DNA from: Escherichia coli
Lineage (GTDB): Bacteria > Pseudomonadota > Gammaproteobacteria > Enterobacterales > Enterobacteriaceae
Strand: one strand, 5' to 3'
Length of the DNA: 64,000 nt
Assembly (NCBI RefSeq): GCF_003991155.1
Contig: NZ_CP031293.1
Positions within the stretch are counted from its first letter, which is position 1, and every line of letters begins with the position of its first letter. A model generated the notes under the pieces. It was not told the DNA's origin. It saw only the letters and a program-made list of their open reading frames with translations, and ran no database searches. Below are positions 1,120 through 52,257 of the stretch, in pieces. The position numbers were made by a program, and so were the translations under genes.

Positions 1120-1694
1120 CGCTTTATTACCATTCTCAGTTGATGCTGCAGCGCATAGCCCAGCTCTTTCGGAAGACGCTCACGCCGTATCCGCTCAATA
1201 TTCTGTTTAAACGCCGTGGTCAGCGGCACCGCCATCGGGATTTTCACCACATCAATGGGGTAACGGTTTTTCCCGGCCACACGCTGCATGACATGCCACC
1301 GGCCATTTTTCAGTTGCTGAATAAACGCGCCGGGAATACGACGGTTTCCCACCACAAGCACGCTGCCGCCACCTTTCAGGGATGAACGCTGCCCCTTTTT
1401 ACGACGCCTGCGTCGGGACAGGACAACCCGCGCGTTACCCAGCCTGATTACGGGCAAATCCCCCCGGTTAACCTTGATTCTGGCCTGCGGATTTTTGACC
1501 GTGGCCCTTTTCAGCCTGGCCCTTTCCTTTACCAGTTTCCGGCGTACCTTTGTCTCACGGGCAACCTGTGACGCCGACTGCGATATCGCGGATGAAGCAA
1601 CGCGGTTAATGGCCATTGCGGCGGCACCGGGCACCGCCGTTCTGCTGATACGGCTGAGGTTTTCAACGGCCTGCTCAAGACCTTTTATGGCCAT
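1116..1694 (-). CDS. Z: Tail completion protein Z
   Basis: 192 aa, length and order as lambda gpZ; 4-nt overlap with U. Confidence 0.88.
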   Translation of the reverse strand: MAIKGLEQAVENLSRISRTAVPGAAAMAINRVASSAISQSASQVARETKVRRKLVKERARLKRATVKNPQARIKVNRGDLPVIRLGNARVVLSRRRRRKKGQRSSLKGGGSVLVVGNRRIPGAFIQQLKNGRWHVMQRVAGKNRYPIDVVKIPMAVPLTTAFKQNIERIRRERLPKELGYALQHQLRMVIKR

Positions 1695-1705
1695 ACATCC
1701 CCCTT

Positions 1706-2059
1706 TCAGCGGCGACGGTTAACGGCAGGCGGTACGCCCCGCCCAAGCCAGAGATGACAGCTTCCGCCATCATCCGGCGAAATCCGGTCTATCCAGAAGT
1801 TTTCCTCACCGATGGTCAGCGTGTCGCCGCGCCGCAGCTGCCGCACATCATCAGTCCGGACAAACAGGGACGGGCTGGAGCCTTCAACGCGCACGCCCTG
1901 TCCGGCATAGCTGATATTTTCAGGGTCATCAAAAACACCACGTATCACAGCACCGGACTGCTCACCGGATGTCATGGTGGCTGACGTTCCCATGTACCCG
2001 CGTATCGTTTCATCGGCGCGGGCAATGGCAGCATCGAACAGGTTATCGAAATCAGCCAC
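1706..2059 (-). CDS. FII: Head-tail joining protein FII
   Basis: 117 aa, matches recalled lambda gpFII (MADFDNLFDAAIARADETIRGYMG...). Confidence 0.9.
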   Translation of the reverse strand: MADFDNLFDAAIARADETIRGYMGTSATMTSGEQSGAVIRGVFDDPENISYAGQGVRVEGSSPSLFVRTDDVRQLRRGDTLTIGEENFWIDRISPDDGGSCHLWLGRGVPPAVNRRR

Positions 2060-2070
2060 AGCGCCTCCCG

Positions 2071-2469
2071 TTATTGCATTCTGGCCAGGCCGCGCTCTGT
2101 CATTTCAGCTGCCACACCGGCAGAGACACGGAACGCCGTTCCCGGCAGCACAAATGCCACAGGTTCATCCCGCGTGGCGTGAAGTGCATCAGTATGCAGC
2201 GTCACCAGTGCCACAACCGTGACCAGTTCAGCCGTATCCTGAATCACGGTATCCGGCTGCGCTGATACCACCTCATTTTCATGCCCGGTCAGCACATTTT
2301 CCCGGCTGAGAGGGGTGTCCTGACCGGCAGTTTCATCCGTGTCATCAAGCTCTTCTTCCAGCTCTGCCACACGAAGCGCCAGTTCTTCTTTCGTTCCCGT
2401 CAAACTGACATCGCGGTTCAGTTGCTCACCCAGCTCCTGAAGACGGGCAATCAGTTCATCTTTCGTCAT
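2071..2469 (-). CDS. FI: DNA packaging protein FI
   Basis: Track ORF 2071..2508; lambda FI-like sequence starts at internal Met (MTKDELIARL...), giving 132 aa. Confidence 0.85.
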   Translation of the reverse strand: MTKDELIARLQELGEQLNRDVSLTGTKEELALRVAELEEELDDTDETAGQDTPLSRENVLTGHENEVVSAQPDTVIQDTAELVTVVALVTLHTDALHATRDEPVAFVLPGTAFRVSAGVAAEMTERGLARMQ

Positions 2470-2510
2470 GAACTCCTCCACAGAGAGAAAATGGCCCCGA
2501 AGGGCCATGA

Positions 2511-3536
2511 TTACGCCAGTTGTACAGACACGAACTCATCAGGATCAGCCAGCAGCATCAGCGGTGCTGACTGAATCATGGTGAACTCACGCGCCGGATC
2601 GCCGGTGGTCACCCAGTTTTTCGGGTAACGGGCAGAGGCGTTAATGCCTTCGCGCTGTGCGTCCGCATCCTGAATGCAGCCATAGGTGCGCAGACCGCGT
2701 GCCTGAGTGTTCCCCAGCACCATCGTGTTGTCCGGCAGGAAGTTCTTTTTGACGCCGTTTTCCACGTACTGTCCGGAATACACGACGATGGCCACATCGC
2801 CATACATCCCCTTGTAGGACACCGCTTTGCCCAGGTCTTTCACCGCTGTCTCCAGCTCGGAATGAGAGCCGCGACGAGTATCCAGCTTCTCCTTGACGGC
2901 TTTGAAGGAACGGAACAGCGCCCAGCCTTTCGGATCAAACACGATGATATTCACCACTCCGCTGGCGTTCAGCGCGTAGGCTTCGATATCGTCGGTCGGG
3001 TCATACGTGGACTTGTCACGCTTGCTCCACTCCGTGCCGCCGGACTGCGTGATGTTGTTGGCCGCACTGCGGCCCATATCCACCTCAACCGGATCGAAAG
3101 CTTCACCGGTCATGGTGTATTTGCCCTTAAGCACGGCAGAAACTGCCTGCATCTCTTCGACCTGGGCAATGGCCAGCTCTTCGTCACGCATGTTCTGCAT
3201 AATGATGCGACGGCGGCGGTAAGCCGGGTCCGCCAGATTCTGCGGATCTTCATCCGGCAGGCGACGCAGGGTCATCTGCGGATTCACCTCATGCTTCGGC
3301 TTGACATATCCCGGCGTAAATTCAGAGGTGGAGCCGCCACGGGAGCGGATAACCTCACCGGAAACAATCGGCGAAACGTACAGCGCCATGTTTACCAGCC
3401 CCGGAATTTGTGAGAGATAGACTTTCTCCGTGGTGAAGGGATAGCTCTCACGGAAAAAGAGACGCAGAAACAGCGGATCAAACTTAAATTTCTGCTCATT
3501 TGCCGCCAGCAGCTGGGCGGTTGTGTACATCGACAT
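2511..3536 (-). CDS. E: Major capsid protein E
   Basis: Track ORF 2511..3563; lambda gpE-like sequence from MSMYTTAQLLAANEQKFKFDPLF..., 341 aa from that Met. Confidence 0.92.
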   Translation of the reverse strand: MSMYTTAQLLAANEQKFKFDPLFLRLFFRESYPFTTEKVYLSQIPGLVNMALYVSPIVSGEVIRSRGGSTSEFTPGYVKPKHEVNPQMTLRRLPDEDPQNLADPAYRRRRIIMQNMRDEELAIAQVEEMQAVSAVLKGKYTMTGEAFDPVEVDMGRSAANNITQSGGTEWSKRDKSTYDPTDDIEAYALNASGVVNIIVFDPKGWALFRSFKAVKEKLDTRRGSHSELETAVKDLGKAVSYKGMYGDVAIVVYSGQYVENGVKKNFLPDNTMVLGNTQARGLRTYGCIQDADAQREGINASARYPKNWVTTGDPAREFTMIQSAPLMLLADPDEFVSVQLA

Positions 3537-3591
3537 AAAAAAATCCCGTAAAAAAAGCCGCACAGGCGGCCTTTAGTGATGAAGGGTAAGG

Positions 3592-23362: not shown

Positions 23363-23425
23363 AAAACTATGGTTGTTTTTAGTCAACAACCATTTTCGTT
23401 TGATGGAATAAAACCTTGGTTGTAC
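23363..23425. promoter_or_regulatory. oR: oR operator/promoter region (pRM/pR) with three related sites
   Basis: 17-mer AAAACTATGGTTGTTTT (23363-23379), related sites near 23383-23399 and 23409-23425 (AAAACCTTGGTTGTACA); same motif recurs at oL. Confidence 0.6.
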
Positions 23426-23434
23426 ATTTGGTCT

Positions 23435-24124
23435 ATGAAAACAACACTCTCAGAAAGACTTAAAGAAGCCAGATCAGCGCGAGGCCTTACACAAAAGGCA
23501 CTTGGGGATTTGGTTGGGGTTAGCCAGGCTGCTATTCAGAAAATCGAAACAGGGAAAGCTAACCAAACAACTAAAATCGTGGAGATCGCGAACGCTTTGG
23601 GTGTGCGCGCAGAATGGTTATCTTCTGGCATTGGAAATATGTCAGACAGTACAGTGCAACCAATACAATCAACTCTCAGCCATTCCAAATACTTCAAGAT
23701 TGACGTTCTTGATATAGAAGTCAGTGCTGGGCCGGGAGTCATCAACCGTGAGTTTGTAGAAGTTCTACGCTCGGTTGAGTACTCGTTTGACGATGCTCGT
23801 CACATGTTCGATGGTAGGAAAGCGGAAAATATCCGCATCATTAACGTGCGTGGTGACAGCATGTCAGGAACGATCGAACCAGGTGATCTGCTGTTCGTTG
23901 ATATCACTGTTAAATCTTTCGACGGTGATGGTATCTATGCGTTTCTGTACGACGACACAGCCCATGTAAAGCGCCTGCAAATGATGAAGGATAAGCTGCT
24001 GGTCATCTCTGATAACAAAAGCTACTCACCGTGGGACCCGATCGAGAAAGACGAGATGAACCGGGTGTTCATCTTCGGTAAGGTTATTGGGAGCATGCCG
24101 CAGACGTACAGGAAACACGGATAA
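23435..24124 (+). CDS. cI: CI repressor (HTH + LexA-like S24 peptidase domain)
   Basis: Track ORF 23369..24124; likely start MKTTLSERLKEARSARGLTQKALG at 23435 with no SD (leaderless, as for lambda cI from pRM); C-terminal serine-protease-type region (GDSM...K). Confidence 0.88.
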   Translation: MKTTLSERLKEARSARGLTQKALGDLVGVSQAAIQKIETGKANQTTKIVEIANALGVRAEWLSSGIGNMSDSTVQPIQSTLSHSKYFKIDVLDIEVSAGPGVINREFVEVLRSVEYSFDDARHMFDGRKAENIRIINVRGDSMSGTIEPGDLLFVDITVKSFDGDGIYAFLYDDTAHVKRLQMMKDKLLVISDNKSYSPWDPIEKDEMNRVFIFGKVIGSMPQTYRKHG

Positions 24125-24923: not shown

Positions 24924-25005
24924 TGCTTAAGAAACTGCTCGCCACCTCGCATTAGGCAAAGCGATTTTTCATTCCCTATTACCCTTTCTTAACCAATCAT
25001 CTAAA

Positions 25006-25032
25006 CCCGGCCCCGTGCCGGGTTTTCTTTTG
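25006..25032 (+). terminator. Rho-independent terminator ending the cI-downstream operon
   Basis: Stem CCCGGC (25006-25011) / GCCGGG (25017-25022), then TTTTCTTTTG. Confidence 0.65.
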
Positions 25033-25144
25033 CCCTCCCCTCATCACACACACCGTTAAAAAAACCACCATAACCTCGCTTCAGTTATCGCTATGCGATT
25101 CAAGTCACAAAATAAATCCATCCTAAATACAACCAGTTATATCT

Positions 25145-25197
25145 AAAACAACCAATAAAACAACTTTTGTTGTTGACGATAAAACAACTATAGTTTT
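25145..25197. promoter_or_regulatory. oL: oL operator/promoter region (pL)
   Basis: AAAACAACTATAGTTTT (25181-25197) differs at one position from the reverse complement of the oR 17-mer; related sites at 25145-25161 and 25157-25174; TTGACG -35-like hexamer at 25172-25177. Confidence 0.55.
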
Positions 25198-25395
25198 AAA
25201 TAAGTTCATCGCAACAACACAACGATACGGCAACCACCTGATTCACCGTTGCGATGACCGCTTAGATCCGCAGCTTGAATTTCAGCAGGCTCCGGGGAGT
25301 GCGAGGGGTGAAGCGGACGCGTGAACGTCGGTGTGACCAGCTGAAATCAACTCAACACTTCATACCTCAGTCGCTTCAACGAGGCGGCTTAGTTA

Positions 25396-25685
25396 TGACA
25401 ACCGGCGGCCATCCACCGCCTGAATACGCGCAGAAGTCTCTATATGTTCAGCAGCCCAGCTTACGGGCAGGAGTTTTTATGGTTCATCAACATTACGGTA
25501 CGCAGACCGTTAATCGCGGTGCGGTCATGCCAGGAATGCTGGTCAAACACAAAGATGGTACCTGGACTGCATCGGCTAATTTACGCGGACGGCTTTATCT
25601 GCATCGCGGCGTCGAGCGCACTTATACCCGTGACTTGCTCGTGGAAATTTTTCTCGACGGACGCGGCAACGGCCTGAATCACTAA
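25396..25685 (+). CDS. Hypothetical early-left protein (N/kil/cIII position); function unknown
   Basis: Track ORF 25275..25685 starts at TTG; first ATG with GAGG RBS at 25396 ([20 protein letters not shown]...); no match to recalled lambda N, kil or cIII. Confidence 0.35.
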
Positions 25686-26062: not shown

Positions 26063-26848
26063 ATGAGTACAGCACTCGCAACGCTGGCTGGGAAGCTGGC
26101 TGAACGTGTCGGCATGGATTCAGTCGACCCACAGGAACTGATCACCACTCTTCGCCAGACGGCATTTAAAGGTGATGCCAGCGATGCGCAGTTCATCGCA
26201 TTGTTGATCGTCGCCAACCAGTACGGCCTTAATCCGTGGACGAAAGAAATTTACGCCTTCCCTGATAAGCAGAACGGCATCGTTCCGGTGGTGGGCGTTG
26301 ATGGCTGGTCCCGCATCATCAATGAAAACCAGCAGTTTGATGGCATGGACTTTGAGCAGGACAACGAATCCTGTACATGCCGAATTTACCGCAAGGACCG
26401 TAATCATCCGATCTGCGTTACCGAGTGGATGGATGAATGCCGCCGCGAACCATTCAAAACCCGCGAAGGCAGAGAAATCACGGGGCCGTGGCAGTCGCAT
26501 CCCAAACGGATGTTACGGCATAAAGCCATGATTCAGTGTGCCCGTCTGGCCTTCGGATTTGCTGGTATCTATGACAAGGATGAAGCCGAGCGCATTGTCG
26601 AAAATACCGCATACACTGCAGAACATCAGCCGGAACGCGACATCACTCCGGTTAACGATGAAACCATGCAGGAGATTAACACTCTGCTGATCGCCCTGGA
26701 TAAAACATGGGATGACGACTTATTGCCGCTCTGTTCCCAGATATTTCGCCGCGACATTCGCGCATCGTCAGAACTGACACAGGCCGAAGCAGTGAAAGCT
26801 CTTGGATTCCTGAAACAGAAAGCCACTGAGCAGAAGGTGGCAGCATGA
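26063..26848 (+). CDS. bet: Bet (Red-beta single-strand annealing protein)
   Basis: 261 aa, same length and sequence type as lambda Bet. Confidence 0.93.
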
Positions 26849-27525
26849 CACCGGACATTATCCTGCAGCGTACCGGGATCGACGTGAGAGCTGTCGAACA
26901 GGGGGATGATGCATGGCACAAATTACGGCTCGGCGTCATCACCGCTTCAGAAGTTCACAACGTGATAGCAAAGCCCCGCTCAGGAAAGAAGTGGCCTGAC
27001 ATGAAAATGTCCTACTTCCACACCCTGCTGGCTGAGGTTTGCACCGGTGTGGCTCCGGAAGTTAATGCTAAGGCGCTGGCATGGGGAAAACAGTACGAGA
27101 ACGACGCCAGAACTCTGTTTGAATTCACTTCCGGCGTGAATGTTACTGAATCCCCGATCATCTATCGCGACGAAAGTATGCGCACCGCCTGCTCTCCCGA
27201 TGGTTTATGCAGTGACGGCAATGGCCTTGAGCTGAAATGCCCGTTTACCTCCCGGGATTTCATGAAGTTCCGGCTCGGTGGTTTCGAGGCCATAAAATCG
27301 GCTTACATGGCCCAGGTGCAGTACAGCATGTGGGTGACGCGAAAAGATGCCTGGTACTTTTCCAACTATGACCCGCGTATGAAGCGTGAAGGCCTGCATT
27401 ATGTCGTGGTTGAGCGGGATGAAAAGTACATGGCGAGTTTTGACGAGATGGTGCCGGAGTTCATCGAAAAAATGGACGAGGCACTGGCTGAAATTGGTTT
27501 TGTATTTGGGGAGCAATGGCGATGA
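26845..27525 (+). CDS. exo: Exo (lambda exonuclease, Red-alpha)
   Basis: 226 aa, matches recalled lambda Exo ([30 protein letters not shown]...). Confidence 0.93.
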
Positions 27526-27676
27526 CGCATCCTCACGATAATATCCGGGTAGGCGCGATCACTTTCGTCTACTCCATTACAAAGCGAGGCTGGGTATTTC
27601 CCGGCCTTTCTGTTATCAGAAATCCACTGAAAGCACAGCGGCTGGCTGAGGAGATAAATAATAAACGGGGGGCTGT

Positions 27677-28234
27677 ATGACTGATTTCACCGGAAGCAAT
27701 ACTCCTGCCGAACATCGCGACAGCTGGCGCACACCACCAGAGATTTTTGCTGCGCTTAATGCAGAGTTCGTTTTTCAACTTGATGCTGCAGCCAGCGAAA
27801 AAAACCGACTATGTCGGCTTTTTATCTCACAGGAGCAGAACACATTAACCACTTCATGGCCTGAAGCAATGGGATATGCCTCTGGTTATGTCTGGTTGAA
27901 TCCACCATACAGCAATATTTCCCCTTTTGTGAAAAAGGCAGCCACTGAAAACAAATTCAGTAGTGTGGGATGTGTAATGTTATTGCCTGCTGACACATCT
28001 GTCGGATGGTTTCATGAAGCGATACAAACCGCCAGTGAGGTCAGATTCATCACGGCAGGACGACTGGCATTTATTAACCCACTCACCGGGAAACCCGTCA
28101 GTGGAAATAATAAAGGCTCGATGCTCATTATCTGGCACCCATACCCCCGTACACACTGCCACTTTACGACCGTTGATCGTGGAGAGTTGATGGCGTTCGG
28201 CTCAAGGATTCTTGCCCGTCGGGAGGCTGCATGA
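27677..28234 (+). CDS. Phage DNA N6-adenine methyltransferase (Dam-like)
   Basis: 185 aa; NPPY motif (WLNPPYSN) and upstream FQLDAAAS motif; no adjacent restriction endonuclease gene seen. Confidence 0.8.
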   Translation: MTDFTGSNTPAEHRDSWRTPPEIFAALNAEFVFQLDAAASEKNRLCRLFISQEQNTLTTSWPEAMGYASGYVWLNPPYSNISPFVKKAATENKFSSVGCVMLLPADTSVGWFHEAIQTASEVRFITAGRLAFINPLTGKPVSGNNKGSMLIIWHPYPRTHCHFTTVDRGELMAFGSRILARREAA

Positions 28235-28310
28235 CAACCACGGAATGCATTTTTCTGGCAGCGGGCTTCATATTCTGTGTGCTTATGCTTGCCGACATGG
28301 GACTTGTTCA

Positions 28311-28526
28311 ATGACACCTCAGCAGGAAAACGCCCTTCGCAGCATTGCCCGTCAGGCTAATTCTGAAATCAAAAAAGCCAGACAGCAGTTTCCGGATAAA
28401 AACGTCGATGACATTTGCCGTAGCGTACTGAAGAAGCACCGCGAAACGGTAACGCTGATGGGATTCACACCGACTCATTTAAGCCTGGCGATCGGCATGT
28501 TAAACGGCGTCTTTAAGGAGCGATGA
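28311..28526 (+). CDS. Hypothetical protein (71 aa)
   Basis: Track ORF 28212..28526; plausible start MTPQQENALRSIARQ at 28311, coupled to an upstream 27-codon hydrophobic micro-ORF. Confidence 0.35.
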   Translation: MTPQQENALRSIARQANSEIKKARQQFPDKNVDDICRSVLKKHRETVTLMGFTPTHLSLAIGMLNGVFKER

Positions 28527-28624
28527 ACATGAAAAGCAAAATCATCAGGGAGCTACAGGCTCCTTTTTTATTGTTCGCATTCATCCTCAAGCGTATTAAC
28601 CAACAATTCAGGGATTAATGGAAG

Positions 28625-28843
28625 ATGGCAGACATCATTGATTCAGCATCAGAAATCGAAGAATTACAGCGCAATACAGCAATAAAAATGCGTCGTCTGA
28701 ACTACCAGACTGTATCCGCAACTCATTGTTGTGAGTGTGGCGATCCGATAGATGAGCGAAGACGCCTGGCTGTTCAGGGTTGTCGGACTTGTGCAAGTTG
28801 CCAGGAGGAGATCGAACTTAAGAACAAACAATGGGGACTGTGA
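28625..28843 (+). CDS. TraR/DksA-family C4 zinc-finger protein
   Basis: 72 aa; C-terminal CxxC...CxxC (CECGDPIDERRRLAVQGCRTCASCQ). Confidence 0.75.
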   Translation: MADIIDSASEIEELQRNTAIKMRRLNYQTVSATHCCECGDPIDERRRLAVQGCRTCASCQEEIELKNKQWGL

Positions 28844-28890
28844 TGGCCTCAAAGCAGCAAATTTCAACATCGTCCAACTGAGGTGTAAAA

Positions 28891-29169
28891 ATGTTCAGAA
28901 TCATTTTTCCTAACACCTGGTACGTCGACCACCACGGCACTCCCTGCAAAATCCTGCGTTCTACCCACAACAAAGTTCACTACATCCGAAAAGGCAGAAC
29001 ATGTATCGCCAGCATGTTCCGCTTTAATCATGACTTTGAACCTGTGAATAAAGCTGATGCAGATCGGATAGCAGAAGAGATCGAAACGGCAGAACACATT
29101 AAGAAGTTACGTGACATGCGTTCAAAAAGCAGAGGTAACCATGGAATCATACAGCCTCACACTCGATGA
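28891..29169 (+). CDS. Hypothetical protein (92 aa)
   Basis: ORF in the early-left region upstream of xis; no family recognised. Confidence 0.4.
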   Translation: MFRIIFPNTWYVDHHGTPCKILRSTHNKVHYIRKGRTCIASMFRFNHDFEPVNKADADRIAEEIETAEHIKKLRDMRSKSRGNHGIIQPHTR

Positions 29170-29512
29170 GGCCTGTCAGTTTCTTAAGATATCCAGACCA
29201 ACCGCCACCAACTGGATACGAACAGGCCGCCTACAGGCAACACGTAAAGATCCAACCAAGCCAAAATCTCCTTACCTCACAACACGGCAAGCCTGCATTG
29301 CGGCGCTTCAGTCTCCGCTGCATACTGTCCAGGTGAGCGCGGGTGATGGCATAACAGAGGAAAGAAAATGTCACTCTTCCGCAGAAATGAAATATGGTAT
29401 GCCTCGTATTCGCTCCCGGGCGGGAAACGAATTAAGGAATCTCTTGGCACAAAGGACAAGCGGCAAGCTCAGGAGTTGCACGACAAGCGAAAAGCAGAAC
29501 TCTGGCGAGTAG
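29141..29512 (+). CDS. xis: Putative excisionase (HTH, AlpA/Xis-like); 3' end uncertain
   Basis: Met at 29141 in frame of track ORF 29111..29512; HTH-like segment [26 protein letters not shown]; directly upstream of and overlapping int. Confidence 0.45.
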
Positions 29513-30531
29513 AAAAGCTAGGGGATTTACCTGATGTCACTTTTGAAGAGGCCTGCCTAAGATGGCTTGAGGAAAAAGCTGATAAAAAATCTCTCGATTC
29601 AGATAAAAGCCGGATTGAGTTCTGGCTTGAACATTTTGAGGGTATAAGGCTTAAAGATATCTCGGAGGCAAAGATTTACTCTGCTGTAAGCAGAATGCAT
29701 AACAGAAAGACGAAAGAAATATGGAAACAGAAAGTTCAGGCCGCCATCAGGAAAGGTAAAGAACTGCCTGTTTATGAACCAAAGCCAGTATCAACTCAGA
29801 CAAAGGCAAAGCATCTTGCCATGATAAAGGCCATTCTCCGTGCTGCAGAACGCGACTGGAAGTGGCTGGAAAAAGCGCCTGTCATCAAGATACCAGCGGT
29901 CAGAAACAAGCGAGTCAGATGGCTGGAAAAGGAGGAAGCAAAACGCCTTATTGATGAGTGCCCCGAACCACTGAAATCTGTCGTCAAGTTTGCGCTGGCA
30001 ACTGGTCTGAGAAAGTCGAACATCATAAATCTGGAATGGCAACAAATCGACATGCAGCGACGAGTTGCCTGGGTGAATCCAGAAGAGAGCAAATCAAACC
30101 GCGCCATTGGTGTGGCGCTGAACGATACCGCCTGTAAAGTGTTGCGTGATCAAATAGGCAAGCATCGCAAATGGGTGTTTGTACATACCAAGGCGGCTAA
30201 GCGAGCAGATGGAACATCAACGCCTGCGGTCAGGAAGATGCGCATCGACAGCAAGACATCATGGCTATCAGCTTGTCGTCGTGCAGGAATTGAAGATTTC
30301 CGTTTCCATGACCTCAGACACACCTGGGCAAGCTGGCTGATTCAGTCAGGCGTCCCATTATCAGTGCTTCAGGAAATGGGCGGATGGGAGTCCATAGAAA
30401 TGGTTCGTAGGTATGCTCACCTTGCGCCTAATCATTTGACAGAGCATGCGAGGAAAATAGACGACATTTTTGGTGATAATGTCCCAAATATGTCCCACTC
30501 TGGAATTATGGAGGATATAAAGAAGGCGTAA
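29368..30531 (+). CDS. intD: Tyrosine integrase (DLP12 IntD-like)
   Basis: 387 aa; C-terminal catalytic region [15 protein letters not shown]...VRRYAHL; adjacent to tRNA-Arg. Confidence 0.93.
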
Positions 30532-30623: not shown

Positions 30624-30864
30624 GTTGATACCGCAATGCGGTGTAATCGCGTGAATTATACGGTCAACCCTTGCTGAGTCAATGGCTTTTGATCTGGTTG
30701 CTGAACAAGTGAACGACCGCGTCTGATTTTCTGATTTATTTCGTTATAGCGGCAAACAAACGCACACCGCTGCGCGTCTGAATCAAGAAAACCCGTATTT
30801 TCATGTATCAAGTACAATTTCCCGCCCTAACGGAAAATTGTCCGATCCAATGAGACTGGTAACT

Positions 30865-31497
30865 ATGAAACCAACGTCGGTGATCATTATGGATACTCAT
30901 CCTATCATCAGAATGTCTATTGAAGTTCTGTTGCAAAAAAACAATGAATTGCAAATTGTCCTGAAAACGGATGATTATCGCATAACCATCGATTATCTCC
31001 GAACCCGTCCTGTTGATTTAATCATTATGGATATAGACTTGCCCGGAACAGACGGTTTTACCTTCCTGAAAAGGATCAAACAAATCCAGAGTACAGTGAA
31101 AGTATTATTTTTATCATCGAAATCAGAATGCTTTTATGCTGGCAGAGCGATACAAGCTGGTGCTAACGGTTTTGTCAGTAAATGCAATGATCAGAATGAT
31201 ATTTTTCATGCCGTTCAGATGATCCTCTCCGGATACACTTTTTTTCCCAGCGAAACGCTCAACTATATAAAAAGCAATAAATGCAGTACGAATAGTTCAA
31301 CGGTCACGGTGCTATCTAATCGTGAAGTAACCATATTACGTTATCTGGTTAGCGGATTATCTAATAAAGAAATTGCCGATAAGTTATTACTTAGCAATAA
31401 AACAGTTAGTGCACATAAATCTAATATTTATGGCAAGCTAGGTTTGCATTCAATTGTAGAGCTTATCGACTACGCCAAATTATATGAATTAATATAA
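30865..31497 (+). CDS. fimZ: Fimbrial response regulator FimZ (LuxR-type)
   Basis: Track ORF 30838..31497; FimZ 210-aa sequence from MKPTSVIIMDTHPIIRMSIEVLL; receiver plus LuxR HTH. Confidence 0.9.
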   Translation: MKPTSVIIMDTHPIIRMSIEVLLQKNNELQIVLKTDDYRITIDYLRTRPVDLIIMDIDLPGTDGFTFLKRIKQIQSTVKVLFLSSKSECFYAGRAIQAGANGFVSKCNDQNDIFHAVQMILSGYTFFPSETLNYIKSNKCSTNSSTVTVLSNREVTILRYLVSGLSNKEIADKLLLSNKTVSAHKSNIYGKLGLHSIVELIDYAKLYELI

Positions 31498-43841: not shown

Positions 43842-44030
43842 GCCGCATGCGGCGTGAACGCCTTATCCGGCCTACCGTTCCAACACCGACTGTAGGCCTG
43901 ATAAGATGCGCCAGCATCGCATCAGGCATGGTGTGCCGATTGCCGGATGCGGCGTGAACGCCTTATCCGGCCTACCGTTCCGACACCGCCTGTAGACCTG
44001 ATAAGACGCGCCAGCATCGCATCAGGCTAG
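43842..44030. repeat. REP/BIME tandem repeat (two ~99-bp units)
   Basis: Near-identical units starting about 43842 and 43941 (GCCGSATGCGGCGTGAACGCCTTATCCGGCCTAC...), typical REP palindromes between convergent genes. Confidence 0.75.
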
Positions 44031-52128: not shown

Positions 52129-52257
52129 GTCATACCACTCGCCTGATTATTTTTAGCTATGTTGGATTTTGCCACGGTTTATTCCGTGGCTTTTTTTGCG
52201 GTAAATTCAGGTAAAAAACGGATGCGATATAAATCGCATCCGCTTTAAAGGTAATAG

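Follow-up and report, generated by a model that had tools for sequence, protein, structure and literature searches.

When a DNA methyltransferase gene stands without a restriction partner inside a chain of short overlapping reading frames, the question arises what the enzyme does there and whether the small reading frames belong to it. We addressed this question in a window of 64,000 nucleotides (nt) of Escherichia coli DNA (contig NZ_CP031293.1, assembly GCF_003991155.1), in which the methyltransferase gene, called dam or the methylase below, is directly followed by a 27-codon open reading frame (ORF), called orf27. The explanation that we favour, with a probability of roughly 0.7, is that an orphan Dam cassette sits in the place of orf63 in the leftward early (pL) operon of a lambdoid prophage and would serve GATC self-methylation, that the flanking genes are residents of this operon, and that orf27 is translated. 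The features that carry the argument are the following:

27677..28234, + strand: dam, an orphan phage N6-adenine DNA methyltransferase gene of 558 base pairs (bp) encoding 185 amino acids (aa); PF05869/TIGR01712, PADLOC oMTase
27899..27910, + strand: catalytic motif IV NPPY of the methylase, residues 75-78, located by the family alignment
28231..28314, + strand: orf27, a hydrophobic ORF of 27 aa with the sequence MTTTECIFLAAGFIFCVLMLADMGLVQ, sharing ATGA overlaps with dam (28231-28234) and orf61 (28311-28314)

The initial annotation had read the gene as an NPPY-motif N6-adenine methyltransferase with no visible endonuclease partner, and this was borne out. In profile hidden Markov model searches, the protein scored 190.9 bits against PF05869 (cut-off 28.1) and 168.2 bits against the NCBIfam equivalog TIGR01712, 'phage N-6-adenine-methyltransferase' (cut-off 97.05), and its best PADLOC match was 'orphan methyltransferase'. 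A family alignment of 86 members, including the Dam proteins of phages T1, HP1 and VT2, has D36, N75, P77 and R129 invariant, all of them present in this methylase, and P76 and Y78 of the NPPY motif are conserved in at least 90% of the members. Searches with Pfam, NCBIfam, PHROGs and PADLOC found no restriction nuclease family among the neighbours exo, DUF1317, orf27, orf61, the TraR-like gene and DUF4222. By these matches, the protein is classed as an orphan phage N6-adenine methyltransferase of the Dam family. The gene is under purifying selection, with 12 synonymous versus 8 non-synonymous polymorphisms among nine intact haplotypes (P = 9e-4).

An AlphaFold (AF2) model computed on the 86-member alignment was a single Rossmann-type domain with a predicted local distance difference test score (pLDDT) of 95 and a predicted template modelling score (pTM) of 0.90. 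Its top fold matches in the PDB were S-adenosylmethionine methyltransferases throughout, mostly N6-adenine enzymes. The best one was the cap m6Am methyltransferase PCIF1/CAPAM (PDB 6IRX and related entries; E = 1.8e-5, template modelling score 0.55), followed by TrmM, KsgA and E. coli Dam; a sequence search of the PDB found no PF05869 member, so that only these distant fold matches were available. PCIF1/CAPAM shares the Rossmann fold with the model, but identity is only 11-18% and the matching part is one domain of a far larger eukaryotic RNA enzyme, which carries NPPF where the phage methylase carries NPPY. The match is a resemblance of predicted fold, not a family membership. The close comparison is with M.EcoVT2Dam of VT2-Sakai/933W, phage T1 Dam and Haemophilus phage HP1 Dam (orf13), which are likewise small, single-domain, orphan and phage-borne and share the family profile, the NPPY motif and D36/R129. 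On every feature that could be tested the methylase is an ordinary member of a known family. It is already named by NCBI's annotation pipeline, the exact protein lies on at least 1,000 contigs, and there is little new about it beyond the position of its cassette.

That position is the new point on the methylase. Alignments of the window with phages lambda and ev243 broke exactly after ...GCTGTATG on the left and resumed exactly at ATGACAACC on the right, with essentially identical flanks, and the DNA outside the cassette was 96-100% identical to both phages. The interval between the breakpoints is filled by orf63 in lambda (192 nt) and by the methylase gene in the window (558 nt). By these alignments, a methylase cassette stands in for orf63 with exact boundaries, the ATG start codon and the TGA stop codon. 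The swap preserves both overlaps, the one with orf60a upstream and the ATGA shared with orf27 downstream. Among 91 unique contexts drawn from IMG/VR and reference phages, 75 carried orf63, 14 carried dam and none carried both, with fixed spacing. The dam form was found in 243 of 5,426 complete E. coli genomes, while the flanks were found in 3,603 of them, and only one of 221 matching phage records had it. The two genes thus behave as ORF-for-ORF alleles, a clean case of cassette exchange at overlapped start and stop codons in lambdoid mosaicism.

The exchange also touches the end of the upstream gene. In lambda, orf63 overlaps the end of orf60a, and therefore the C-terminus of Orf60a in the window is 8 residues shorter than that of lambda. 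One further feature lies at this junction:

27666..27671, + strand: G6 run just 5' of the dam ATG; G5 in phage PhiR30_1 and in most of the IMG/VR copies with dam

In the G5 version the orf60a stop is shifted 7 nt downstream, which gives an 8-nt overlap instead of ATGA and an Orf60a end of …RGLYD* instead of …RGAV*.

The target of the methylase was approached through its characterised relatives. It is 47% identical to VT2-Sakai Dam, 45% to T1 Dam and 40% to HP1 Dam, and these three are mutually only 33-38% identical, so this methylase is closer to each of them than they are to one another. Both T1 Dam and HP1 Dam act on GATC. The target of VT2 Dam is GATC as well (PMC6602927), and the VT2-Sakai record notes the likeness of its Dam to those of T1 and HP1. 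Because the methylase falls inside the sequence span of the three enzymes, its target is most likely GATC. The initial annotation had proposed looking for a new methylated motif in the lysogen; for the same reason such a motif is unlikely. A lysogen methylome would probably reveal nothing new in any case, since the gene is likely silent there and host Dam already methylates GATC. Within the window, the observed/expected ratio of GATC was 0.71 in positions 1-30531, which contain the prophage, and 0.95 beyond, a difference too weak to interpret.

Alternatively, the enzyme could have a different or relaxed target outside GATC, giving broad protection against several restriction systems and a new motif. 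It shares only 40-47% identity with the characterised GATC enzymes, a separate target-recognition domain is lacking in the family (185 aa, a single-domain model), and its closest relatives (72-76% identity) are the C-terminal domains of C5-cytosine methylase/Dam fusions of 515-663 aa in Enterobacter phages, the fused relatives at 72-75% representing an arrangement typical of multi-target anti-restriction enzymes. An example is gp41 of Enterobacter phage vB_EclS_CobraSix, in which a C5-cytosine methylase and a C-terminal Dam make up one protein of 637 aa, whereas the Dam of the window stands alone with 185 aa. The CobraSix fusion gene (1633-3546 of its stretch) also lies between exo and DksA-like, xis and int genes, as the methylase does here, and by analogy the fusion looks like self-protection of phage DNA. 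Against another target stands the greater closeness of the methylase to T1, HP1 and VT2 Dam than of these to each other: if all three recognise GATC, parsimony favours GATC here too. We regard a non-GATC target as unlikely. A connection with Hia5 and M.EcoGII, two non-specific adenine methylases, was also considered and rejected, both being described as other kinds of enzyme: Hia5 is related to classical Dam enzymes and has a DPPY motif (PMC3299994), and M.EcoGII is given as a beta-class enzyme (PMC7544214).

With GATC as the favoured target, expression and role can be set out. The exo-xis region, in which the methylase lies, is transcribed from pL (PMC4195576), and a promoter scan gave no + strand promoter-like site in 26800-29600. 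Reading the sequence, we found six consecutive ATGA junctions that chain bet, exo, orf60a, dam, orf27, orf61 and the following 31-aa ORF (orf31); the cistron overlaps that the initial annotation had taken for translational coupling were thereby confirmed. The simplest reading would be that the gene is expressed from pL and that the ATGA chain couples its translation. The methylase would then have no promoter of its own and would be made only after prophage induction or infection, from pL and alongside the recombination genes, and it would methylate replicating phage DNA, most likely at GATC. In packaged lambda DNA only about 50% of the Dam sites are methylated (PMC3299994). Host Dam would thus leave fast-replicating lambda DNA about half methylated, and a phage copy could complete the methylation. 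The progeny may then be protected from restriction by MboI/DpnII-type enzymes, whose substrate is unmethylated GATC, and also after growth in Dam-poor hosts. An anti-restriction role of this kind is plausible.

The position in the orf63 slot could also suggest that the methylase is mainly a developmental regulator, acting by epigenetic control of phage or host promoters and standing in for the pro-lytic orf63. According to PMC6213356, deletion of orf63 delays and weakens prophage induction, and the exo-xis genes collectively modulate the choice between lysis and lysogeny (PMC8614690). The methylase, however, has no relationship to Orf63 in sequence or fold, and no data tie phage Dam copies to regulation. 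Moreover, in VT2-Sakai and Min27 the same Dam family lies between ninB and ninE, in the nin region of the pR operon, whereas the methylase of the window lies within the pL exo-xis region; since a VT2-type member resides in the nin region, the function is probably independent of position. A regulatory role is therefore considered quite improbable, and we keep to self-methylation of phage DNA.

Do the small ORFs around the methylase belong with it? The features concerned are:

27522..27680, + strand: homologue of orf60a (DUF1317), 52 aa from ATG 27522 or 54 aa from ATG 27516; PF07026 117.8 bits, phrog_1998
27586..27608, + strand: terminator-like hairpin inside orf60a, identical in sequence to 't1', a terminator predicted by Bloch et al. 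2014 (PMC4195576, Table 4)
28311..28526, + strand: orf61, full-length 71 aa; phrog_303; variable sites by codon position 5, 5 and 16
28523..28618, + strand: 31-aa ORF, or 29 aa from ATG 28529, with a strong/perfect ribosome-binding site TAAGGAG; present in lambda too
28547..28575, + strand: intrinsic-terminator-like hairpin (28547-28565) and T-run inside the 31-aa ORF, same as the predicted terminator 't2' of Bloch et al. 2014 (PMC4195576)

The ORFs that the initial annotation had described are present as described, including the 71-aa ORF at 28311-28526, and the end of the range that it gave (28618) coincides with the end of the further 31-aa ORF, which it had left undescribed. Its 53-codon ORF at 27519-27680 is real, as is the overlap with the exo stop, but position 27519 is a GCG codon and the start was thus placed 3 nt off. 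The more likely orf60a start is ATG 27522, which makes an ATGA overlap with the exo stop (27523-27525), is the start used by NCBI and in lambda and is where the DUF1317 profile match begins. It had also tied these micro-ORFs to the methylase, which did not hold: orf60a, orf61 and the 27-aa ORF, joined by the same ATGA overlaps, are found in lambda and also in thousands of orf63-bearing prophages. By this distribution, the flanking small ORFs are resident lambda exo-xis genes that are independent of the methylase. The exo-xis block of lambda as described by the Wegrzyn and Donaldson groups (orf60a, orf63, orf61, orf73, ea22) has the same position and order, with near-identical orf60a, orf61, orf73, 31-aa ORF, t1 and t2, but lambda has orf63, ea22 and a frameshifted orf61, whereas the window has the methylase for orf63, no ea22 and the 71-aa orf61.

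The state of orf61 matters for what follows. Its protein was 100% identical in all 80 IMG/VR loci that were kept from 409 relatives, and most other lambdoid phages encode the intact 71-aa Orf61. The lambda reference NC_001416 has an extra A in the gene (A7 versus A6). Because of this extra A, the annotated 61-aa lambda orf61 is a frameshift chimera that starts upstream, crosses orf27 out of frame and ends early; lambda Orf61 has been remarked to look truncated (PMC8614690). In one E. coli assembly orf61 is split by an element of the insertion sequence (IS) family IS3, and strain PEC408 has an IS1 inside the matched region from the exo 3' end to orf61. The 31-aa ORF is probably the 'orf2313' that was reported from lambda ribosome profiling, judged by its length (PMC8614690). 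As a matter of speculation, translation across the t2 hairpin might modulate termination before orf73.

The least expected part of the block is orf27. Its 27 hydrophobic codons at 28231-28314 and the ATGA overlaps at both ends are exactly as the initial annotation had them. Lambda (30925-31008, complement) and ev243 have exactly the orf27 DNA of the window, the ORF was intact in all 85 unique contexts that were examined, and the exact peptide was found on at least 981 contigs. Of 5,426 complete E. coli genomes, 3,249 (~60%) gave matches to a 306-nt stretch with orf27 and orf61, at up to five places per genome. The peptide has a grand average of hydropathy (GRAVY) of 1.62, within the top 1.5% of the 269 short ATG-started ORFs in the window, and its best 19-residue Kyte-Doolittle window is 2.33, within the top 1% of the short ORFs there, which amounts to a hydrophobic stretch of transmembrane length. 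It has two acidic and no basic residues and thus a net charge of -2. No family match was obtained in Pfam, NCBIfam, PHROGs or PADLOC, and a literature search for the peptide sequence found no paper that contains it in the library searched. The ORF is unannotated in the records of lambda RefSeq, ev243, PhiR30_1, phage 434, VT2-Sakai and E. coli 2016C-3878, and absent from the feature summaries of the other NCBI-annotated E. coli genomes among the matches listed; as a hypothetical protein it does appear in some GenBank and UniProt entries. KdpF, AcrZ and MgtS are small single-helix membrane proteins of E. coli, and orf27 resembles this class in length, in having one hydrophobic segment of helix length and in being easily missed in annotation. 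It differs from them in that it has no sequence similarity to them, is phage-encoded and is coupled on both sides, and its membrane location is a predicted one.

Selection on the reading frame of orf27 was tested with 78 unique haplotypes aligned over 28231-28843. Within the 84 nt of orf27 there were 15 distinct polymorphic changes, of which 11 were synonymous in the orf27 frame against an expectation of 25% (P = 1.3e-4). The same changes were synonymous once in the orf61 frame, three times in the third forward frame and 4 to 7 times in the antisense frames. Variable sites by codon position numbered 3, 1 and 9 in orf27, a distribution to be compared with 5, 5 and 16 in orf61 and 23, 12 and 36 in orf73, both accepted genes, while in the 31-aa ORF they were spread evenly (6, 6 and 7) with no bias. 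The ratio of non-synonymous to synonymous substitution rates (dN/dS) for orf27, calculated from the polymorphism counts, was roughly 0.12. By these patterns, orf27 appears to be under purifying selection on its own frame and behaves like a real gene.

Several points weigh against the favoured explanation. The orf27 test comprises only 15 polymorphisms among sequences that are at least 95% identical, and no diverged homologues of orf27 or orf61 were found, the BLAST hits in phages and E. coli all being at least 95% identical. One antisense frame that shares its wobble positions with orf27 was synonymous at 7 of the 15 changes (P = 0.03); in that frame, one common variant destroys the start codon and two other changes alter Met or Lys. 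A review that summarises lambda ribosome profiling names extra ORFs of 7 and 31 aa in this block and not one of 27 (PMC8614690). For the methylase, GATC is extrapolated from relatives of 40-47% identity, and minor changes can give a methyltransferase another target. One of the 10 dam haplotypes is frameshifted, which makes dam dispensable.

The search for diverged copies had two by-products. A few 'diverged' proteins from a search of 5.8 billion proteins turned out to be frameshifted assemblies or the copy disrupted by IS3 and were discarded. A degenerate-pattern scan of the genomes of 100,044 species gave only two contigs from metagenome bins, both identical to the lambda type. These two contigs (labelled Segatella copri and Nanosynbacter) carry the junction orf63-orf27-orf61, with orf27 identical to the lambda type, and most likely represent contamination or mis-binning. 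The module of orf27 and orf61 appears to be confined to lambdoid phages of E. coli.

What the 84 nt do can be read in different ways. On the polymorphism pattern and the hydropathy, orf27 may be a translated 27-residue membrane peptide with a single helix, and its translation probably also feeds ribosomes to orf61, whose ribosome-binding site is weak. At odds slightly below even, it would be a genuine translated membrane peptide of lambdoid phages that standard annotation has missed, and part of the published lysis-lysogeny and adsorption phenotypes of 'orf61' deletions would then be due to orf27.

The stretch might instead have no peptide function: it could couple the translation of the upstream gene to that of orf61, extend orf61 at its N-terminus to 93 aa, or act as a weak promoter inside the operon. 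The weak orf61 ribosome-binding site and the ATGA overlaps fit coupling, and many annotations, among them VT2-Sakai H0081 and the profile PHROG 303, start orf61 upstream at ATG 28245. A weak sigma-70 promoter, p2 of lambda, has been predicted inside orf27 (28245-28276; -35 ATGCAT, -10 TCATATTCT; Bloch et al. 2014, PMC4195576), and a peptide function of orf27 is backed by no family, structure or experiment. The variation speaks differently: downstream of ATG 28245, 8 of 9 changes are non-synonymous in the orf61 frame (including G>R, S>C and H>Y) and 7 of 9 are silent in the orf27 frame, and neither a coupler nor a promoter would yield third-position variation or a preserved amino-acid sequence. 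In our own promoter scan no + strand promoter-like site was detected at the predicted p2 stretch. A function of the DNA without the peptide is for these reasons doubtful. A common G>T variant at 28242 makes a stop in the orf61 frame; it looks decisive against the extended orf61 but is not, since it lies one codon upstream of the ATG 28245 of the extension. The case against the extension is carried by the 8:1 excess of non-synonymous changes downstream of that ATG.

The initial annotation had likened the hydrophobic peptide to small membrane toxins or kil-like peptides. A toxin or a Kil-like host-killing peptide would agree with the hydrophobic stretch of transmembrane length and with the place of orf27 in the early-left operon, which also carries kil. 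The likeness fails in its details: the searches of Pfam, NCBIfam, PHROGs and PADLOC related the peptide to no toxin or Kil family, and it has no Lys or Arg, whereas type I toxins (TisB, Ibs and ShoB, for instance) are basic. Nor does orf27 have an antisense RNA or its own promoter, embedded as it is in a coupled operon, and the 306-nt stretch is matched in ~60% of the complete E. coli genomes, at up to five places in one genome. The toxin idea is very unlikely and serves only as a loose functional analogy, and the translated membrane peptide remains the reading that we prefer for orf27.

The overlap between orf27 and the annotated orf61 bears on published work. The Δorf61 mutants of lambda and Phi24B were made by swapping the 'nucleotide sequence of orf61' for a scar (PMC6213356). 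In lambda, orf27 (30925-31008) lies wholly within the annotated orf61 (30839-31024), and the VT2-Sakai homologue H0081 carries the extended annotation of 93 aa, which also covers orf27. Because the annotated orf61 spans orf27, the Δorf61 mutants, judged from the annotation coordinates, probably lack orf27 as well. The lysis-lysogeny role assigned to orf61 thus rests on deletions that probably remove orf27, and separating the two genes matters for exo-xis work on Shiga-toxin phages. Lambda is the best-studied phage, yet orf27 is missing from its reference annotation, where the frameshifted orf61 lies on top of it. Of the two, the methylase offers little novelty and orf27 a modest amount.

The remaining results concern the surroundings. 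The window was matched at 100% identity by the chromosome of E. coli 2016C-3878. Two conserved neighbours delimit the block:

26845..27525, + strand: exo (lambda exonuclease, YqaJ domain), the upstream neighbour, whose stop overlaps the orf60a start
28625..28843, + strand: orf73 (TraR/DksA C4 zinc-finger protein), PF01258, phrog_54, the downstream conserved exo-xis gene

The locus belongs to the leftward early (pL) operon of an intact lambdoid prophage of the DLP12 type, located at argU, and makes up the exo-xis segment of that operon. The prophage is inserted at the tRNA-Arg(tct) gene argU, beside fimZ and intD, measures ~45 kb and carries intD, emrE, ybcK, ybcN, rusA, Q, iss, nohD and full sets of head and tail genes; from this gene content at argU it is therefore regarded as an intact relative of DLP12, the cryptic prophage of K-12. 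DLP12 occupies the same argU site but has lost the exo-xis segment that is kept here. The gene order of the prophage end is bet, exo, ..., a helix-turn-helix (HTH) gene (xis-like), intD and argU, so that the block lies between exo and xis/int of the leftward early operon, as exo-xis genes do. The genes orf60a, orf61 and orf73 are all present (matches to DUF1317, phrog_303 and zf-dskA_traR). No orf63 (DUF1382) was found in the block, the methylase being in its exact place, and no ea22 was found 3' of orf73, where the stretch up to int holds just a DUF4222 ORF and an HTH_17 remnant. The region is thus the known exo-xis block minus two of its five conserved genes, orf63 being replaced and ea22 missing. 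The literature describes the exo-xis region as conserved and as dispensable in the laboratory, and its genes as a group as modulating the lysis-lysogeny decision (PMC8614690). PhiR30_1, deposited as a complete phage genome with E. coli C as host, is 99% identical over the whole 1.5 kb including the methylase.

Some minor observations were made elsewhere in the window. The xis-like HTH_17 ORF at 29111-29512 is an incomplete pseudogene according to the NCBI pipeline, as is xisD in K-12; yet the region up to and including int is near-identical in PhiR30_1, a phage whose genome was deposited as complete. A stretch of ~530 bp at 24945-25478 has no annotated gene and no evident N-like ORF, and is flanked by ORFs downstream of a cI-like S24 peptidase gene (23369-24124) and by a kil-like ORF (25479-25685). 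In the chromosomal part of the window there were two minus-strand Rfam matches to sRNA families, naRNA4 at 43895-43972 (83 bits) and STnc480 at 52135-52201 (82 bits), which are unrelated to the locus.

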